Part shown: piece after piece, positions 3,637 to 44,871 of the stretch
How the letters are laid out: each line of letters starts with the position of its first letter
Position numbering within the stretch: the stretch's first letter is position 1
Origin: an uncultured Erysipelotrichaceae bacterium
GTDB lineage: Bacteria; Bacillota_I; Bacilli_A; RF39; UBA660
Assembly (NCBI GenBank): GCA_902785135.1
Contig: CACZXL010000007.1
Location: 6,016-70,015, forward strand
Length of the DNA stretch: 64,000 nucleotides
Direction of reading: 5' to 3'
Notes under the pieces: model-generated
What the model was told of the DNA's origin: nothing
Databases searched by the model: none
The model's input: the letters and a program-made list of their open reading frames with translations, nothing else
Translations under genes and position numbers: made by a program

Positions 3637-4515
3637 ATGATAGAGAACAAATTTTATGTTATAAATGAAGATGGTATCAGAGTTGATGCTAGAATTCTAT
3701 CTAAATTTAGATTATCAAATGGAAATAATTACATAACATATACATATGATGAATATAATAATGACGGAATGATTAAAATTTATGAAACAGGAATAACTAA
3801 TGATAACGGAATTCTTTCTTATAAAGAAATATCAACAGATCAAGAATGGAATGATATTAAAACTGTTCTTAAAACATTAGCTAAATCAGAAGAAGAAGCA
3901 TTTCCTGCCGTATTAAAAGCTGATTTAAAAATAGTAGGTGAAGAAGTTGATATTAAGAATCCTAAGAAGTTATTAGTTTCTAAGAAATTTGCTGATGTAT
4001 TAGCTAGTAAATATAGTGAAGATACTACTGATACAAGTGTTGGTACTGCTCCAGTAATTGAAACACCTGTAATAGAAGCACCTGCATCACCAGTTGTAGA
4101 AGCTGAACCTGAGTTAGAAAAGACAATAAAAATTCCTACATTTGAAGAATTACAAGCAAGAAATAAGAGTATTCAAGCTGCTATGAATACAGTTAAAGAA
4201 GAAGTTCCAGAACCAGTTCAACCCAAGATGCCAGTATATGAATCAAGAGTTAAAAAAGTTGATTATGAAGAAAAATTTAAAAAGGATGTTGAACCAGTTT
4301 TACTTGATGTTTATGCTCAACAACAAAAACATATTGAAGAATTAGAAGAAGAATTATCAAAAACTAAATTTGATTTATTTGAAAAACAAAAAGAAGCTTT
4401 ATCTTTAAGTAATGAAAAAGCTCAAATTGAAAGAAAGACTAAAGCTTTAGAACAAGAATTAGATGGCGTTCAAAAGAAAATGAGCGGAATCCTAGATGTA
4501 TTACAAGAAAAATAA
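3637..4515 (+). CDS. DUF1292 (YrzB-like) domain protein with long Pro/Glu-rich and coiled-coil C-terminal extension
   Basis: The N-terminal ~95 aa (EDGIRVDARILSKF...TDQEWNDIKTVLKTLA) fits the DUF1292 pattern. The remainder is low-complexity and coiled-coil. Confidence 0.5.
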   Translation: MIENKFYVINEDGIRVDARILSKFRLSNGNNYITYTYDEYNNDGMIKIYETGITNDNGILSYKEISTDQEWNDIKTVLKTLAKSEEEAFPAVLKADLKIVGEEVDIKNPKKLLVSKKFADVLASKYSEDTTDTSVGTAPVIETPVIEAPASPVVEAEPELEKTIKIPTFEELQARNKSIQAAMNTVKEEVPEPVQPKMPVYESRVKKVDYEEKFKKDVEPVLLDVYAQQQKHIEELEEELSKTKFDLFEKQKEALSLSNEKAQIERKTKALEQELDGVQKKMSGILDVLQEK

Positions 4516-7059: not shown

Positions 7060-8013
7060 ATGAAAGAATTATATAGAGAAATATATAAGAAAATAAAGGA
7101 ATTTGATAAGATAGTTATCGCAAGACATATAGGTGCGGATCCTGATGCTTTAGGTAGTACATTAGGGTTAAAAGAAATTATTTTAAATACTTTTCCTAAT
7201 AAAAAGGTATCATGTATAGGAGTTTATTCATCTGTATTTAAATATATGGGTAAAATGGATAAGTTAAATGAAGATGAAATAAAAGATTCTTTATTAATAG
7301 TATGTGATACACCTAACGTTATTAGAATTGATGGAATAGATGATCCTAGAAAGTTTAAATATGTTATTAAGATTGATCATCATCCAGAAGTAGATCATTT
7401 TGAAGACTTAAAATGGGTTGATGTTAAATCATCTTCAGTATGTCAAATGCTTATCGAATTAACAAATGAAACTAGATTAAAAATGAGTAAAATTGCTGCC
7501 GAAAAGCTATATATGGGTTTAGTTTCAGATACAAATAGATTCTTATATGAATATACTACACCAAAGACTTTTGAATTAGTGGCTGGTTTAGTTAGAGAAA
7601 ACAAATTAGATATAGTTTCTTTATATAATAATTTATATCAAAGACCATTGATAGATATTAGATTTCAAGGTTATGTAGCGCAAAACTTAAAAGTTTCTGA
7701 AAGTGGATTTGCTTATATATTTATTGATGATAAAACTATAGAAAAATTTGGTGGAGATACTGGTCTTTCCGGGAATGTAATAGGAAGTTTTAATAATATT
7801 AATGAAATATTAGTATGGGTAATATTTACTGAAGATAAAAAGCAAGGGCTTATTAAGGTAAATGCTAGAAGTAGAGGACCTGTTATTAATACTATATTAG
7901 AGAATTATGGTGGAGGAGGTCATGCTATGGCATCTGGTGCCAGACTAACTAAAAAAGAAGATGTAGATAAACTTATAGAAGATTTTGATAAGTTATGTAA
8001 AGAATACAAATAG
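7060..8013 (+). CDS. nrnA: DHH/DHHA1 phosphoesterase, NrnA-like oligoribonuclease / pAp phosphatase
   Basis: DHH motif in IKIDHHPE and DHHA1 GGGGHAMASGA motif. 317 aa. Confidence 0.8.
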   Translation: MKELYREIYKKIKEFDKIVIARHIGADPDALGSTLGLKEIILNTFPNKKVSCIGVYSSVFKYMGKMDKLNEDEIKDSLLIVCDTPNVIRIDGIDDPRKFKYVIKIDHHPEVDHFEDLKWVDVKSSSVCQMLIELTNETRLKMSKIAAEKLYMGLVSDTNRFLYEYTTPKTFELVAGLVRENKLDIVSLYNNLYQRPLIDIRFQGYVAQNLKVSESGFAYIFIDDKTIEKFGGDTGLSGNVIGSFNNINEILVWVIFTEDKKQGLIKVNARSRGPVINTILENYGGGGHAMASGARLTKKEDVDKLIEDFDKLCKEYK

Positions 8014-8059
8014 TATTCTTTTTTATTATAAAATTTGATATAATTATTAGGGTGGTAAA

Positions 8060-9472
8060 ATGAAAAAAACAAAAATAGTATGTAGTATAGGACCAGCTAG
8101 TATAGATCCAAATATAATGGAAGAAATGGTCAATGAAGGAATGAATGTAGCGAGAATTAATTTTTCTCATGCAGGATATGATAATTGTAATGAAATAATA
8201 AAATCAGTAAATGAAGTTAGAAATAGAACTGGTAAAAATATAGGTTTATTATTTGATACAAAAGGTCCAGAATTTAGAAATGATGAAGTTATAGATGGTG
8301 GAATAGAATTAGTTGAAGGAAACACCATAAGAGTTGTAAAAGAACATGTTGTAGGAGATAACAATAGATTCTCTGTTAATCATCCTGAAGCTATTGATTC
8401 TATAGAAGTTGGTAACTTTATTTTATTAGAAAATGGTCTTATGAAGATAGAAGTTATTTCTAAAGAAGAAGATGGTATAACTTGTAAAGTTATTTCAGGT
8501 GGAAATTTAGGTAGTAAGAAAAGTTTAAATGTACCAGGGGTTCATTTAAATGTTCCATTCATGAGTGATAAGGATAGAGAAGATATAATTTTTGCTTGTC
8601 AAAATGATGGAGACTTTTTAGCAGCGTCTTTCGTATCTTGCGCAAATGATGTTTTAGAAATTAAAAAGATTATAGATGAACAAGGTTCAGAAATGAAAAT
8701 TATATCTAAAATAGAAAACACTATGGCTATAAATAATATAGAAGAAATTATTAGTGTTTCAGATGGTATTATGGTAGCAAGAGGAGATCTAGGTGTTGAA
8801 GCATCAATGGAAGATTTACCTCATTATCAAAAAGATATTATTAAAAGATGTAGAGCACATTCTAAATTTGTTATAGTAGCAACAGAAATGCTTGAATCAA
8901 TGAAAGAAAACTTAAGACCAACAAGAGCAGAGGTATCAGATGTAGCTAATGCTGTATTAGATGGAACAGATGCTGTTATGTTATCTGGTGAAACTACAGT
9001 TGGTAAATATCCAGTAAATGTTGTTAAAACAATGGCTGATATATGTGAAAGACAAGAAAAATATGTTAAATTCGATAGAAATTATGATTTTGATAGAAAG
9101 AATAATATAGTAGAAATGGTAGCAACATCTGCAGTAGCATCTGCAAATGAATTAGATGCAAGTTTAATAGTTACTGGTACTTTATCTGGTTATACAGCAA
9201 GAAAACTTAGTAATATGAAACCAGATTGTATAATATTCTCAACTTGTCATGAAGCTAGAGTAGCTAGATCATTAAGTTTATATTATGGTGTAGAGACACA
9301 AGTAATAGAATTCTATAAATCTACTGATGAAATGATAAATAATTCAATTAAAATAGCTAAAGAAAGATTTAATCTTAGTGAAGGAGAATTAGTTGTCGTA
9401 ACTGGTGGATTTACTGAAAATATGTTTGAACAACATACAACAAATCTTATGAAAATAGTAAAAATAAAGTAA
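8060..9472 (+). CDS. pyk: Pyruvate kinase
   Basis: MKKTKIVCSIGPAS N-terminus, FSHAGY, MVARGDLGVE active-site block. 470 aa. Confidence 0.93.
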   Translation: MKKTKIVCSIGPASIDPNIMEEMVNEGMNVARINFSHAGYDNCNEIIKSVNEVRNRTGKNIGLLFDTKGPEFRNDEVIDGGIELVEGNTIRVVKEHVVGDNNRFSVNHPEAIDSIEVGNFILLENGLMKIEVISKEEDGITCKVISGGNLGSKKSLNVPGVHLNVPFMSDKDREDIIFACQNDGDFLAASFVSCANDVLEIKKIIDEQGSEMKIISKIENTMAINNIEEIISVSDGIMVARGDLGVEASMEDLPHYQKDIIKRCRAHSKFVIVATEMLESMKENLRPTRAEVSDVANAVLDGTDAVMLSGETTVGKYPVNVVKTMADICERQEKYVKFDRNYDFDRKNNIVEMVATSAVASANELDASLIVTGTLSGYTARKLSNMKPDCIIFSTCHEARVARSLSLYYGVETQVIEFYKSTDEMINNSIKIAKERFNLSEGELVVVTGGFTENMFEQHTTNLMKIVKIK

Positions 9473-27633: not shown

Positions 27634-27699
27634 TATTTACTTTTATAAATAAATATGTTAAAATACCTTTAACGAAAGCAATGAAAAAGAAGAGTAGTA

Positions 27700-27870
27700 T
27701 ATGAATTATTAAAGAGAGTCTATGTTTGGTGAGAATAGATATAATGATTATATGAATGAAGCTTTGGAGCTGAAGTCGTATTTAGGCGTTAACTAATTAA
27801 AGTGCATAGTTCCTATGAAGTAAGGTGGTACCGCTAGAAATAGTCCTTACATTATAGGGACTTTTTTATT
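27700..27870 (+). promoter_or_regulatory. T-box riboswitch leader upstream of gltX
   Basis: Stem I AGAGAGTCTATGTTTGGTGAGAATAG, candidate Glu specifier GAA in tatatGAAtGAAgc, T-box core aaGGTGGTACCGCtag at 27823-27838, and terminator agtcctta-catta-tagggact plus T6 at 27842-27868. Confidence 0.7.
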
Positions 27871-30962: not shown

Positions 30963-31036
30963 GGACCTATAGCCAAGTGGTAAGGCACGGGACTGCAACT
31001 CCCTGATCGTTGGTTCAAATCCGACTAGGTCCTCCA
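30963..31036 (+). tRNA. tRNA-Cys (GCA)
   Basis: Acceptor stem ggaccta/taggtcc, anticodon loop ctGCAac, T-arm gttgg-ttcaaat-ccgac, encoded CCA. Confidence 0.85.
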
Positions 31037-31042
31037 TGGATT

Positions 31043-31117
31043 GCAGGTGTAGTACAATGGTTAGTACGAGGCCTTGCCAAGGCTTAGACGAGAGTTCGAT
31101 TCTCTTCACCTGCTCCA
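31043..31117 (+). tRNA. tRNA-Gly (GCC)
   Basis: Acceptor stem gcaggtg/cacctgc, anticodon loop ttGCCaa, T-loop ttcgatt, discriminator U, encoded CCA. Confidence 0.9.
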
Positions 31118-38710: not shown

Positions 38711-38970
38711 ATTTATCTTGAAAACCTTTGATGGGAAGAGTAAAAAGATGGATTTTATAGAGAGTCTATGGTTGGTGGAAATAGATATTAAAGTCTTTTG
38801 AACATGGTCCTTGAATAGGTGATTAACTGATATGTAAGTTAATACAGGTGTGCCTGTTACAGCACTAAACCAAATTGGTTATTAAGGTTAATATAGTAAT
38901 ATATTAATGAAAAAGAGTGGTAACACGAGTTTGATCGTCTCTTAGAAGTTTTCTTCTAAGAGTTTTTTAT
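38711..38970 (+). promoter_or_regulatory. T-box riboswitch leader upstream of metG-proS
   Basis: Stem I AGAGAGTCTATGGTTGGTGGAAATAG is nearly identical to the gltX leader. Candidate Met specifier ATG in gaacATGGtcc. T-box-like aGTGGTAACACGag. Terminator tctcttagaag-ttttc-ttctaagag plus T6 at 38938-38968. Confidence 0.65.
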
Positions 38971-38987: not shown

Positions 38988-40619
38988 ATGAATATAATAG
39001 TAGGTATAAGTTGGCCATTTGCGAATGGTGATCTTCATATTGGGCATGCTGCATCTTCTTTACCAGGGGATGTAATCGCAAGATACCATAGATTAAAAGG
39101 TAATAATGTATTAATGGTATCAGGTACTGATTCACATGGTACACCAATTGAAGTTAAAGCTTTAAAAGAAAATAAAAATCCTAAAGATATAGTTTCTGAA
39201 TGTCATAAAGCTTTTACTAAAGATTGGATAGATCTTGGTATGAGTTATGATCTATTTAATAGAACTGATGATGATTATCATAAAGAATTTGTTCAAGAAC
39301 AATTTAAAAAATATGATGAAAATGGTCTATTATATGAAAAAGAAGAAGAACAATTATACTGTGAAAACTGTAATATGTTTTTAGCGGACCGTTACATATT
39401 AGGTACTTGTCCAAAGTGTGGCGCTGATATTAAAGGTGATGAATGTGAAAAATGTGGTAGTCTTTTAACTATTGATGAAGTAAAAGATACTAGATGCGCA
39501 ATATGTGGAAATCCTACAACTAAAAAAGCAAATAAGAATCTTTATTTTAAATTATCTAAATTTGAAGATGATATTAGAAAAATGTGTGAAGAACATAAAG
39601 ATTTATGGAGAGATAACGCAGTTAAGTTTACTGAAAGATATTTAAATGAAGGTATACCTGATAGATGTGTATCTAGAGTACAAAAATATGGTATAGATAT
39701 ACCTGTTAAAGGATATGAAGATAAGAAATTATATGGTTGGTTTGAAAATGTATGGGGTTATGTAACTGCATCTAAAAAACAAGCTGAAGCTCAAGGATTA
39801 GATTGGAATGACTTTTGGAAAAAAGATAGAGATAATAAAATATATCTAGTACACGCTAAAGATAATATTCCTTTCCATACAGTAATATTCCCAATATTAT
39901 TAATGGGTACAAATGATAATTATAAAATGCCAGATAAAATAGTTTCAGATGAATATGTAAATATTGAAGGAGAAAAATTATCTAAGAGTAAGGGTAATTA
40001 TATTCCAATAAGACATTTACTAGATAGATATTCAGTTGATACAACTAGATATTTCTTAACTAGTAATGATCCAGAAAACAAGGACTTTAATTTTACTTGG
40101 GAAGGATTTATTAATTCACATAATGGTGAACTTTTAGGTAAATGGGGAAATTTTGTTAATAGAACACTTCAATTTATAAATAAGTCATTTGATGGAAAAC
40201 TATCTAATACAGAAATAGATTCAGAAATTGAATCTAAGTTAAAAGAATTATATGTTACAGTAGGTAGTGATATAGATAATGGTGATATTAAAAAAGGTAT
40301 TGAAACTATATTTGATTTCATATCTTATTCAAATAAATATTTTGATGAAAATGAACCATGGAATCTTGCTAAAACTGATGTAGATAAATGTGAAAAGGTT
40401 TTATATAATTGTTGTAACATTATTTTAAACGTAAATAATTTATTAAAACCTTATTTAATAGAAAGTACTGCAAAAGTAGAAAAATACTTGAATAAGGGTA
40501 TTAAAACATGGAATTATGAAAGATTAGAGGAAGTAAATTTAGAAAAAGAAATAGAAGCTTTATTTGTTAGATATGATAAATCATTAATAGAAGAAGAAAA
40601 AAGTATATTAGGTAAATAA
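38988..40619 (+). CDS. metG: Methionine--tRNA ligase (short form without C-terminal tRNA-binding domain)
   Basis: PFANGDLHIGHA (HIGH), zinc knuckles CENC...CPKC, KLSKSKGN (KMSKS). Confidence 0.9.
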   Translation: MNIIVGISWPFANGDLHIGHAASSLPGDVIARYHRLKGNNVLMVSGTDSHGTPIEVKALKENKNPKDIVSECHKAFTKDWIDLGMSYDLFNRTDDDYHKEFVQEQFKKYDENGLLYEKEEEQLYCENCNMFLADRYILGTCPKCGADIKGDECEKCGSLLTIDEVKDTRCAICGNPTTKKANKNLYFKLSKFEDDIRKMCEEHKDLWRDNAVKFTERYLNEGIPDRCVSRVQKYGIDIPVKGYEDKKLYGWFENVWGYVTASKKQAEAQGLDWNDFWKKDRDNKIYLVHAKDNIPFHTVIFPILLMGTNDNYKMPDKIVSDEYVNIEGEKLSKSKGNYIPIRHLLDRYSVDTTRYFLTSNDPENKDFNFTWEGFINSHNGELLGKWGNFVNRTLQFINKSFDGKLSNTEIDSEIESKLKELYVTVGSDIDNGDIKKGIETIFDFISYSNKYFDENEPWNLAKTDVDKCEKVLYNCCNIILNVNNLLKPYLIESTAKVEKYLNKGIKTWNYERLEEVNLEKEIEALFVRYDKSLIEEEKSILGK

Positions 40620-43835: not shown

Positions 43836-44198
43836 ATGAAAAAATTTAAACAAGATTTAAAAGAATTTAAAATTCCTATTATTGTAGTTACTATATATAT
43901 TATTTTTATGAAAATAGTATTTGGAAGTGTATGCCCGATAAAAGTATTTTTTCATATTGATTGTCCAGGTTGTGGATTAACTCGTGCAACAATAGCGCTC
44001 CTAAAGGGTGATATAGCAAAATCATTACATTATAATTATACTTGTATATTATGGTTAATAACGTTTATGTTATTTATTATAGATAGATATATAAAACCAT
44101 TAAGAATTAAACCTTTTCCAGTTCTTTTTATTATTACGAGTGTAGTAACAATAATTAGATATATTTTAATTATGGTATTTAATATACATATTTTTTAA
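43836..44198 (+). CDS. DUF2752-family small membrane protein
   Basis: CPGCGLTRA motif plus three TM helices. Confidence 0.55.
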   Translation: MKKFKQDLKEFKIPIIVVTIYIIFMKIVFGSVCPIKVFFHIDCPGCGLTRATIALLKGDIAKSLHYNYTCILWLITFMLFIIDRYIKPLRIKPFPVLFIITSVVTIIRYILIMVFNIHIF

Positions 44199-44251
44199 GT
44201 TTATTTGAAATATTTATTTTTATAATATATAATATATTAAAGGAGAGTAGT

Positions 44252-44641
44252 ATGAAGAAAAAAATAATAATTATATCAGTATGTTTAATTATTATATTCT
44301 TTATAGTCTACAAATTTACTAGAACAGAAAACAATATTAAGATAACATTTTTAAAAGATAACGAAGAATATAAAGATGTAATTGTTAAAAATATTGATAA
44401 TATTCAGATTAATAAGTATACTGAAGCTGGATTAGAAAGCAAAGTAATAACTAATAAAGAAGATATTAGTTCTGTTTATAGTGATTTATTAAATATTAAA
44501 TATGGAGAAGAAACAGATATGGCTTGTGAAGATAATACAACTATATATTTAATAACTCTAAAAAATGGAAAGAAAAAAACAATTACTATCGAATGTGATT
44601 GGATTATCATAGGAGATAAAAGATATTTAATAGAAAAATAG
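44252..44641 (+). CDS. Hypothetical N-terminally anchored protein
   Basis: Single TM helix IIIISVCLIIIFFIV, then a ~100-aa domain. Confidence 0.5.
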   Translation: MKKKIIIISVCLIIIFFIVYKFTRTENNIKITFLKDNEEYKDVIVKNIDNIQINKYTEAGLESKVITNKEDISSVYSDLLNIKYGEETDMACEDNTTIYLITLKNGKKKTITIECDWIIIGDKRYLIEK

Positions 44642-44649
44642 GAGGATAT

Positions 44650-44787
44650 ATGGAAAAAAAATGTAATTGTGGACCTGATTGTAAATGTGGGTGTAACGAA
44701 GGAAAAAAATGTACTTGCAATGGTGAATGTAAGTGTGGATGCAAAAAAGAAACTAAGAAAAAATGTGGTTGCAAGAAGAATTGCTAA
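44650..44787 (+). CDS. Unannotated 45-aa cysteine-rich metallothionein-like peptide (below track cutoff)
   Basis: aggagga lies 5 nt upstream of the ATG. Translation is MEKKCNCGPDCKCGCNEGKKCTCNGECKCGCKKETKKKCGCKKNC, with 14 Cys in CxC/CxxC/CGC arrangements. Followed by terminator hairpin aagatatttt-aaaaaa-atatctttttt. Confidence 0.6.
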   Translation: MEKKCNCGPDCKCGCNEGKKCTCNGECKCGCKKETKKKCGCKKNC

Positions 44788-44871
44788 AAGATATTTTAAA
44801 AAAATATCTTTTTTTCTTTAAAATATTTACAAATAATGCTATAATGATTAATGTAGGAGTAGGAGTACAAT

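Follow-up and report, generated by a model that had tools for sequence, protein, structure and literature searches.

Few families of bacterial metallothioneins have been described, chiefly SmtA/BmtA with the related Pseudomonas proteins, and MymT. In SmtA, both Cys and His serve as ligands, in a zinc-finger-like fold that includes aromatic residues. MymT binds up to six Cu+ ions and is controlled by the CsoR paralogue RicR (PMC3944814). According to reviews of 2024-2026, knowledge of bacterial metallothioneins is still limited. As an operational class, metallothioneins are proteins of low molecular weight in which Cys makes up 15-30% of the residues, CxC-type motifs occur, aromatic and His residues are few or absent, and much metal is bound in thiolate clusters. 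We present here a 45-codon gene at positions 44650-44787 (+) of a 64,000-nucleotide stretch of the genome of an uncultured Erysipelotrichaceae bacterium (contig CACZXL010000007.1; the whole stretch is called the window below). The gene probably encodes a small cytosolic metallothionein-like peptide of an undescribed bacterial family, predicted to bind metal.

The translated frame is MEKKCNCGPDCKCGCNEGKKCTCNGECKCGCKKETKKKCGCKKNC. The ATG-to-TAA frame, the strong Shine-Dalgarno sequence at a suitable distance from it, the interspersed Lys residues, and the hairpin with T-run reported in the initial annotation were all recovered (Table 1). The 45-amino-acid (aa) product contains 13 Cys (29%), one fewer than the 14 first counted, together with 13 Lys, 6 Gly, and no His or aromatic residues. 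Its Cys spacings of 1,3,1,1,5,1,3,1,1,7,1,3 give seven CxC, five Cx3C, and three CGC motifs; of the motifs named initially, CxC and CGC are therefore present, but CxxC does not occur. Length, Cys content, the lack of His and aromatic residues, and the CxC and Cx3C motifs all agree with the operational class of metallothioneins; the bound metal typical of the class is, for this peptide, a prediction with indirect support from the gene contexts of relatives described below. A full 7-Cys module occupies residues 5-23, a second, 5-Cys unit occupies residues 21-31, and the C-terminal part carries CGCKKNC. The peptide is unusually basic (net charge, +8) and has no signal peptide, hydrophobic segment, or predicted secondary structure. 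AlphaFold2 returned a low-confidence coil (mean pLDDT, 61.6) without helices or strands, as would be expected for a fold that needs metal. With the window G+C content of 25.8%, the expected frequency of TGY codons is 0.0226, and 13 or more Cys codons would fall in a run of 45 with a probability of 1.5e-11, which rises to about 6e-6 when all six-frame windows of the stretch are counted. No other 45-codon stretch of the window has more than 10 Cys codons, and those that come near are interrupted by stop codons.

A word-indexed search returned six close clusters (75-88% identity), none of them named and each derived from metagenomes or metagenome-assembled genomes (MAGs). Orthologues keep the frame and the Cys columns across three genomic contexts: DUF2752 gene-p129-peptide gene (L001-L005, L009-L013), where p129 encodes a 129-aa protein; cation diffusion facilitator (CDF) gene-short-chain dehydrogenase gene-peptide gene-ADP-ribosylglycohydrolase gene (P0004, L006-L008); and peptide gene-acetyltransferase gene (L014, L015). 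An AGGAGGA sequence followed after 3-4 nt by ATG is kept both in the window clade (L002-L005, L009-L013) and in the unrelated context of L006-L008; no site of this type lies ahead of the peptide start in L014 and L015. Compared codon by codon with its orthologues, the window gene shows near-saturated synonymous differences (pS, 0.53-0.78) and few nonsynonymous ones (pN, 0.05-0.25), with pS and pN of 0.63 and 0.048 against L002, 0.78 and 0.052 against L009, and 0.67 and 0.20 against L006. TGT/TGC swaps at retained Cys positions recur among the orthologues, and the peptide is 84-95% identical where the flanking proteins are only 55-75% identical. On these comparisons, the frame is a genuine gene, and purifying selection on it is strong. 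A chance open reading frame (ORF) in intergenic or 3' untranslated sequence, as might be supposed of a short frame below usual annotation cut-offs in an A/T-rich genome, is scarcely conceivable. It is excluded because synonymous sites are close to saturation, amino acid change is very low, and the peptide is more conserved than the proteins that flank it; the improbable Cys content and the hundreds of homologues across phyla, at G+C contents from 0.24 to 0.61, also speak against chance, and the comparative data already refute it.

Among known families, the only Pfam signal for the peptide is Metallothio_5 (PF02067), at 14.5 bits (E = 0.039), which does not reach the gathering cut-off of 25 bits. 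A three-module relative (P0014) sums to 31 bits against the same cut-off, a score that would indicate resemblance, not membership. The window peptide and nine relatives have no match to PF02069 (SmtA/BmtA, Metallothio_Pro) at E <= 10, the window peptide and six relatives have none in NCBIfam, and a sequence-profile search of the PDB at E <= 10 found none. Module strings (CKCGCQEG and others) occur in no paper of the searchable literature. The module, its fusions, and the csoR-peptide operons described below were not found in the openly searchable literature, Pfam, or NCBIfam, a scope that leaves out InterPro and subscription-only papers. The module family is thus most likely an undescribed, new sequence family of metallothionein-like peptides. 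A 2026 report of a TrxA thioredoxin-metallothionein chimera (PMC13578184) concerns an SmtA-type domain and is irrelevant here.

Like SmtA/BmtA (metallothionein family 14), the peptide belongs to a bacterial group of small, Cys-rich, presumed cytosolic metal buffers, often paired with a metal-sensing repressor. It differs in having no PF02069 match, no His, and no Phe, Tyr, or Trp, in agreement with the initial suggestion that it lies outside that type. With the Diptera metallothioneins of family 5 (PF02067, Drosophila MtnA type) and the Neurospora-type fungal metallothioneins it shares a length of about 40 aa, Cys as the only candidate ligand, and CxC/Cx3C patterning with Gly and Lys between. 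What sets the window family apart is an invariant G-C-Q-E-G-K-x-C-T-C core of its own, together with bacterial ribosome-binding sites and operons; the resemblance to the eukaryotic proteins may be convergent. The Csp copper storage proteins likewise sequester Cu(I) through Cys thiolates in the cytosol or periplasm, sometimes under the control of a copper sensor (PMC11672702); they are, however, four-helix-bundle tetramers of about 120 aa per chain, whereas the 45-aa window peptide has no helices in its AlphaFold2 model, and no relationship between the two was found.

The module spans 19 residues with 7 Cys. Its consensus is C-N-C-G-P-D-C-K-C-G-C-Q-E-G-K-E-C-T-C, its general pattern is C-x-C-x3-C-x-C-G-C-Q-E-G-K-x-C-T-C, and its copy in the window peptide is CNCGPDCKCGCNEGKKCTC. 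In 79 distinct instances the constancy of the seven Cys is built in by the search pattern, and the non-Cys positions are kept as follows: G10 in 77, G14 in 76, T18 in 66, K15 in 63, E13 in 57, and Q12 in 55. In the peptide alignment, C5, C7, C11, C13, G14, C15, G18, C21, T22, and C23 (window numbering) are invariant. Alignment A2 contains 25 other sequences, to which the window peptide is 55-90% identical; its identity to stand-alone relatives from beyond its own clade is 55-69%. A profile built on the close family matched 31 of 1.84e9 representative proteins, a pattern scan of one genome per species gave 42 loci, and a scan of metagenomes gave 210 further stretches. A broader profile retrieved 140 clusters at 90% identity, all unnamed or called "hypothetical protein"; precomputed Pfam domains were found in none of these except P0132 (GrpE, PF01025).

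Six forms of the module were found: free peptides of 33-60 aa in low-GC MAGs labelled Bacilli, Erysipelotrichaceae, or Tenericutes (rumen, mouse gut, and human gut); tandem arrays; N-terminal cytoplasmic domains ahead of a transmembrane helix and a SIMPL (PF04402) domain; C-terminal tails of a SlyD-like FKBP, HisRS, a flotillin-like protein, and an aquaporin; N-termini of GrpE homologues (L039, L047, P0132) and of DoxX and DUF1761 membrane proteins; and copies behind signal peptides in high-GC (~0.6) MAGs, mostly labelled Spirochaetales. The arrays run from 5 to more than 8 units and lie in L026 (7962-8387), L030 (2524-2982), L031 (about 7800-8200), and L033 (7725-8915). That of L033 is fused to a transmembrane helix and SIMPL domain, and that of L031 lies inside a 720-aa protein of a Planctomycetaceae-labelled MAG with 57% G+C. 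In being appended to chaperones at the same place (the SlyD-like protein of L021; GrpE), the module resembles the metal-binding tails of SlyD and of Helicobacter HspA and Hpn. Those tails are of low complexity and poorly conserved, whereas the 7-Cys module is discrete, conserved across phyla, and a free-standing gene in the window.

The T-box leaders and tRNA genes of the window (positions below), its G+C content of 25.8%, and the labels Bacilli, Erysipelotrichaceae, or Tenericutes on relatives suggest that the window comes from an uncultured low-GC, Bacillota-type bacterium of gut or rumen. Taxonomic labels of some MAGs look unreliable. One contig syntenic with the window (L016, CAZJSD010000050.1; 26% G+C) is labelled Muribaculaceae, and among L026/L030/L046 and L017-L049, gut MAGs with 26-30% G+C go under Rickettsiales or Alphaproteobacteria.

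Some relatives lie beside genes with a metal connection. In the survey of this association, all ORFs of 149 sequences (1.15 Mb) were searched with a hidden Markov model of the CsoR-like neighbour and with the CDF neighbour. Every one of the 15 CsoR-family ORFs detected adjoins a module-bearing ORF on the same strand, with csoR first in 11 loci and the peptide gene first in the other 4. The gap between the two genes, read directly in L018, is 17 nt, and the stop-to-stop frames of the two ORFs overlap in 9 of the 11 csoR-first loci. The 15 ORFs fall into three lineages, which share at most 53% identity with each other. The CsoR neighbours match PF02583 (E ~1e-27), and their best NCBIfam profile, below its cut-off, is the copper sensor RicR. 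Aligned with what we take to be the M. tuberculosis CsoR sequence, all of them keep Cys...His-x3-Cys at C36/H61/C65. This corresponds to x-C-H-C, the Cu(I) fingerprint of the CsoR family, against H-C-H-H in RcnR, P-C-H-x in FrmR, and x-C-N-C in CstR (PMC11672702).

For the type-2 operator of CsoR, published as ATATACCCCTNAGGGGTATAT, the core TAC-N9-GTA flanks G-tracts (PMC3902906). In the 1.15 Mb, this core is combined with a G4 tract at four sites. Three of these sites lie just upstream of the metallothionein-like genes of L026, L030, and L046, where the boxes overlap the -10 element or sit just downstream of it. The csoR-peptide operons carry a conserved ATATACCCCC box at the -35 region. CDF transporter genes adjoin the module gene in L037, L115, and L125 and lie one gene away in P0004/L070; in L125 (647-2490), csoR, the metallothionein-like gene, and the CDF gene follow one another on one strand. 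Stand-alone relatives, in sum, supply the one structural gene of csoR-type operons or lie beside CDF transporter genes. In L021, an FKBP_C/SlyD-like protein (7311-8093) ends in a tail in which four CGCG(E/G)HHHH(H)DEG repeats precede the 7-Cys module; the module makes up its last 25 residues. A tail of the SlyD type is a recognised metal-binding appendage. As to the metal that would be preferred, the csoR-linked relatives suggest Cu(I), and the CDF-linked relatives, which are the closest outside the window clade (75% identity), suggest Zn/Cd/Co-type ions. Together with purifying selection and the Cys content, the CsoR-, CDF-, and SlyD-tail-linked relatives speak for the initial proposal of an unannotated metallothionein-like gene, in which metal binding itself is the predicted part.

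The comparison with MymT extends to these contexts. MymT (53 aa) and the window peptide are both small, cytosolic, Cys-rich bacterial peptides. MymT is under a CsoR-family Cu(I) repressor, and relatives of the window peptide likewise have an adjacent CsoR gene and operator-like boxes, although the window copy does not. MymT, which occurs solely in pathogenic mycobacteria, has His residues, and the window peptide has none. No sequence relationship to MymT was detected: none of the homology searches with the family returned a mycobacterial protein, although no direct comparison with the MymT sequence was made.

Several further observations concern the same loci. The L125 unit pairs a copper-type sensor with a family of divalent-cation exporters, and the L021 protein is a natural fusion of His-rich and Cys-rich metal-binding elements. 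Away from the csoR-peptide units, L023 has an extra GGGGGTATA G-tract box (3674-3682, -) upstream of a 101-aa gene and L112 has an extra TAC-N9-GTA with GGGG (2978-2992); these boxes may mark further genes of the CsoR regulon. In L046 (29% G+C contig), the spacer between the metallothionein-like gene and csoR includes a GC-rich island (8180-8500; about 320 nt) that contains internal inverted repeats and is missing from the orthologous spacers of L026 and L030. The island has only a chance-level miRNA match in Rfam and might represent a structured RNA or a small mobile element.

A thiol-rich scavenger of oxidants or electrophiles, or a reserve of cysteine or sulfur with no specific part for metal, would also account for a peptide with 29% Cys. 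The CsoR family includes persulfide (CstR) and formaldehyde (FrmR) sensors, so a CsoR neighbour alone is not proof of copper (PMC11672702). The adjacent regulators nevertheless carry C-H-C, in contrast to CstR (C-N-C or C-x-C) and FrmR (P-C-H); the RicR profile is their best match, and the CDF neighbours and the His-rich SlyD tail point to metal ions. We consider a purely thiol-based role quite unlikely.

A precursor of a ribosomally made, modified or secreted Cys-rich peptide (ranthipeptide/SCIFF-like or antimicrobial) would be short and Cys-rich, the window variant is cationic at +8, and one context (L065-L067) has a radical-SAM gene a few genes away. Such a product is very unlikely. The peptide has no leader/core architecture, its Cys-rich part beginning at residue 5; a conserved maturase, protease, or exporter adjoins it in none of more than 12 contexts; the module serves as an internal or terminal domain of housekeeping proteins; and a PADLOC search gave no match. 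The charge of the family, moreover, ranges from +10 to -8. Because of this variation, charge-dependent functions are unlikely, and nucleic acid binding, hinted at by the +8 charge of the window peptide, was rejected. A phage origin of the gene was also rejected, with one match in 2.9 million viral contigs.

In the reading that we prefer, a metallothionein-like peptide, the 13 thiolates would wrap soft metal ions such as Cu(I), Zn(II), or Cd(II) into a metal-thiolate cluster, so that the peptide folds around them in the cytosol and buffers or sequesters them. By analogy with metallothionein domains and MymT, 13 Cys might hold about four divalent ions or six to eight Cu(I). In the window lineage, a consensus-like sigma-A promoter would give rise to a p129-peptide transcript ending at the hairpin terminator, with the peptide translated from its strong Shine-Dalgarno sequence. 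The window peptide seems to be expressed without a dedicated copper switch because no CsoR operator or metal sensor lies nearby; this copy would be a constitutive or differently regulated metal buffer, not a copper-induced one. For the wider family, we lean slightly towards a portable 19-residue, 7-Cys module that constitutes a dispersed prokaryotic metallothionein family (free, in arrays of more than 8 units, behind signal peptides, and on SlyD, GrpE, HisRS, aquaporin, DoxX, and SIMPL proteins). On this reading, the CsoR-type copper-responsive operons of uncultured gut and rumen Bacilli would carry the free form as their sole cargo.

The following points weigh against a metal-binding role. 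We infer metal binding by family members from composition and from the contexts of relatives, and most stand-alone relatives are also found in unrelated contexts. In the window, searches for homologues of CsoR, CDF, CopZ, and P1B-ATPases found none, neither GGGGGTATA nor TAC-N9-GTA (CsoR-type) boxes were found near the peptide gene, and the conserved neighbours (p129, the DUF2752 protein, and a membrane protein with an XRE-type helix-turn-helix [XRE-HTH] domain) have no known metal link. The PF02067 score, as given above, is below the gathering cut-off. It is also unusual among metallothioneins that non-Cys residues (G-C-Q-E-G-K-E-C-T-C) should be so very strongly conserved, which could reflect recognition by a specific protein partner or enzyme.

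If the metallothionein reading is true, the peptides would represent a further eukaryote-like, Cys-only family of bacterial metallothioneins, so far from uncultured gut and rumen bacteria, and would supply a missing piece of metal homeostasis in anaerobic gut communities that face high dietary Cu and Zn in livestock. The free peptides of CsoR operons would then provide copper defence by sequestration, not efflux, within a testable csoR-metallothionein regulon, and the module would offer a compact, naturally modular metal-binding tag. The family was missed by standard annotation because its members are shorter than 60 aa; ORFs below that length in A/T-rich genomes can conceal conserved functional genes.

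The features of the locus are listed in Table 1.

Table 1. Coordinates of the metallothionein-like gene, its expression signals, and its upstream neighbours in the window
Feature	Position	Strand	Remarks
XRE-HTH multi-pass membrane protein, 520 aa	42221-43783	+	N-terminal XRE-type HTH, several hydrophobic segments
DUF2752 membrane protein, CPGCG motif	43836-44198	+	PF10825, E = 1e-17; syntenic in the same clade
Sigma-A-type promoter-like site, TTGAAA-17-TATAAT	44205-44233	+	Upstream of p129; 11/12 matches
p129, 129-aa protein with N-terminal hydrophobic anchor	44252-44641	+	No family; ends 8 nt before the peptide gene
Shine-Dalgarno sequence, AGGAGGA	44640-44646	+	3 nt before ATG; overlaps the p129 TAG stop at 44639-44641
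Metallothionein-like gene	44650-44787	+	ATG start, 45 codons, TAA stop; from sequence
Intrinsic-terminator-like hairpin and U-rich tail	44786-44819	+	Hairpin 44786-44812, tail 44813-44819

The overlap of the Shine-Dalgarno sequence with the p129 stop suggests translational coupling of p129 and the peptide gene, and the two appear to be co-transcribed in the window lineage. p129 orthologues, 57-63% identical, lie immediately upstream of the peptide gene in L002-5, L009-13, L071, and L077; p129 itself has no match in Pfam or NCBIfam. The TTGAAA-17-TATAAT site is the probable promoter of the bicistron: its -35 and -10 elements, like the Shine-Dalgarno sequence, are kept in the window, L002, L009, and L012, and the flanks vary. 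In L002 and L009 the operon runs on into further genes, whereas in the window it ends at the hairpin. That hairpin has a 12-bp A/U-rich stem and a 3-nt loop (dG, -7.5 kcal/mol; z = -3.6), none of 200 shuffled sequences is as stable, and the tail that follows directly is UUUCUUU. A simple terminator scan missed it because it has fewer than three G-C pairs. The gene downstream (44872) has its own TG-extended promoter-like site at 44817-44845.

The operon linkage raises the alternative that the peptide, structured by Zn or an Fe-S cluster, serves as a small subunit or an adaptor in a membrane complex with p129 and the DUF2752 protein, where its role would be structural or redox and not that of a metal buffer. 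The linkage is tight, with the Shine-Dalgarno sequence overlapping the p129 stop, the order DUF2752-p129-peptide is kept in three diverged lineages, the DUF2752 protein has a CPxCG motif of its own, and the non-Cys residues of the module are unusually conserved. Linkage to p129 and DUF2752 is nevertheless limited to one genus-level clade, relatives both closer and more distant occur in at least 12 other contexts without either gene, and the module is also fused to unrelated cytosolic proteins. To our knowledge, no Fe-S or zinc-ribbon pattern is known that places 7 Cys in 19 residues with CxC/Cx3C spacing. A role as a complex subunit is therefore unlikely, and a functional link between the DUF2752 gene and the peptide gene is hypothetical. 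As family-wide partners of the peptide, p129, the DUF2752 protein, and the XRE-HTH protein were each rejected, the synteny being restricted to that one clade.

DUF2752 orthologues in the window clade are 68-75% identical. The XRE-HTH protein, whose C-terminus ends in GCNCEKIERDNSVEISCE, is possibly a membrane-tethered regulator. Homologues with about 55% identity also lie upstream of the DUF2752-p129-peptide cluster in L009-L012 and L077, and in L022 a shorter HTH membrane relative is encoded directly 3' of the peptide gene. PADLOC found no defence system at the locus and only generic HTH matches for the neighbouring regulator. A few genes 3' of the peptide gene, the L002-L004 lineage has a MazE/PemK toxin-antitoxin pair (L002, 7571-8145) that is absent from the window. 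Elsewhere, the window contains two tRNA genes (30963-31114) and two T-box leaders (27672-27851 and 38719-38945), the second of which lies just upstream of a MetRS-like gene (38988-40619).

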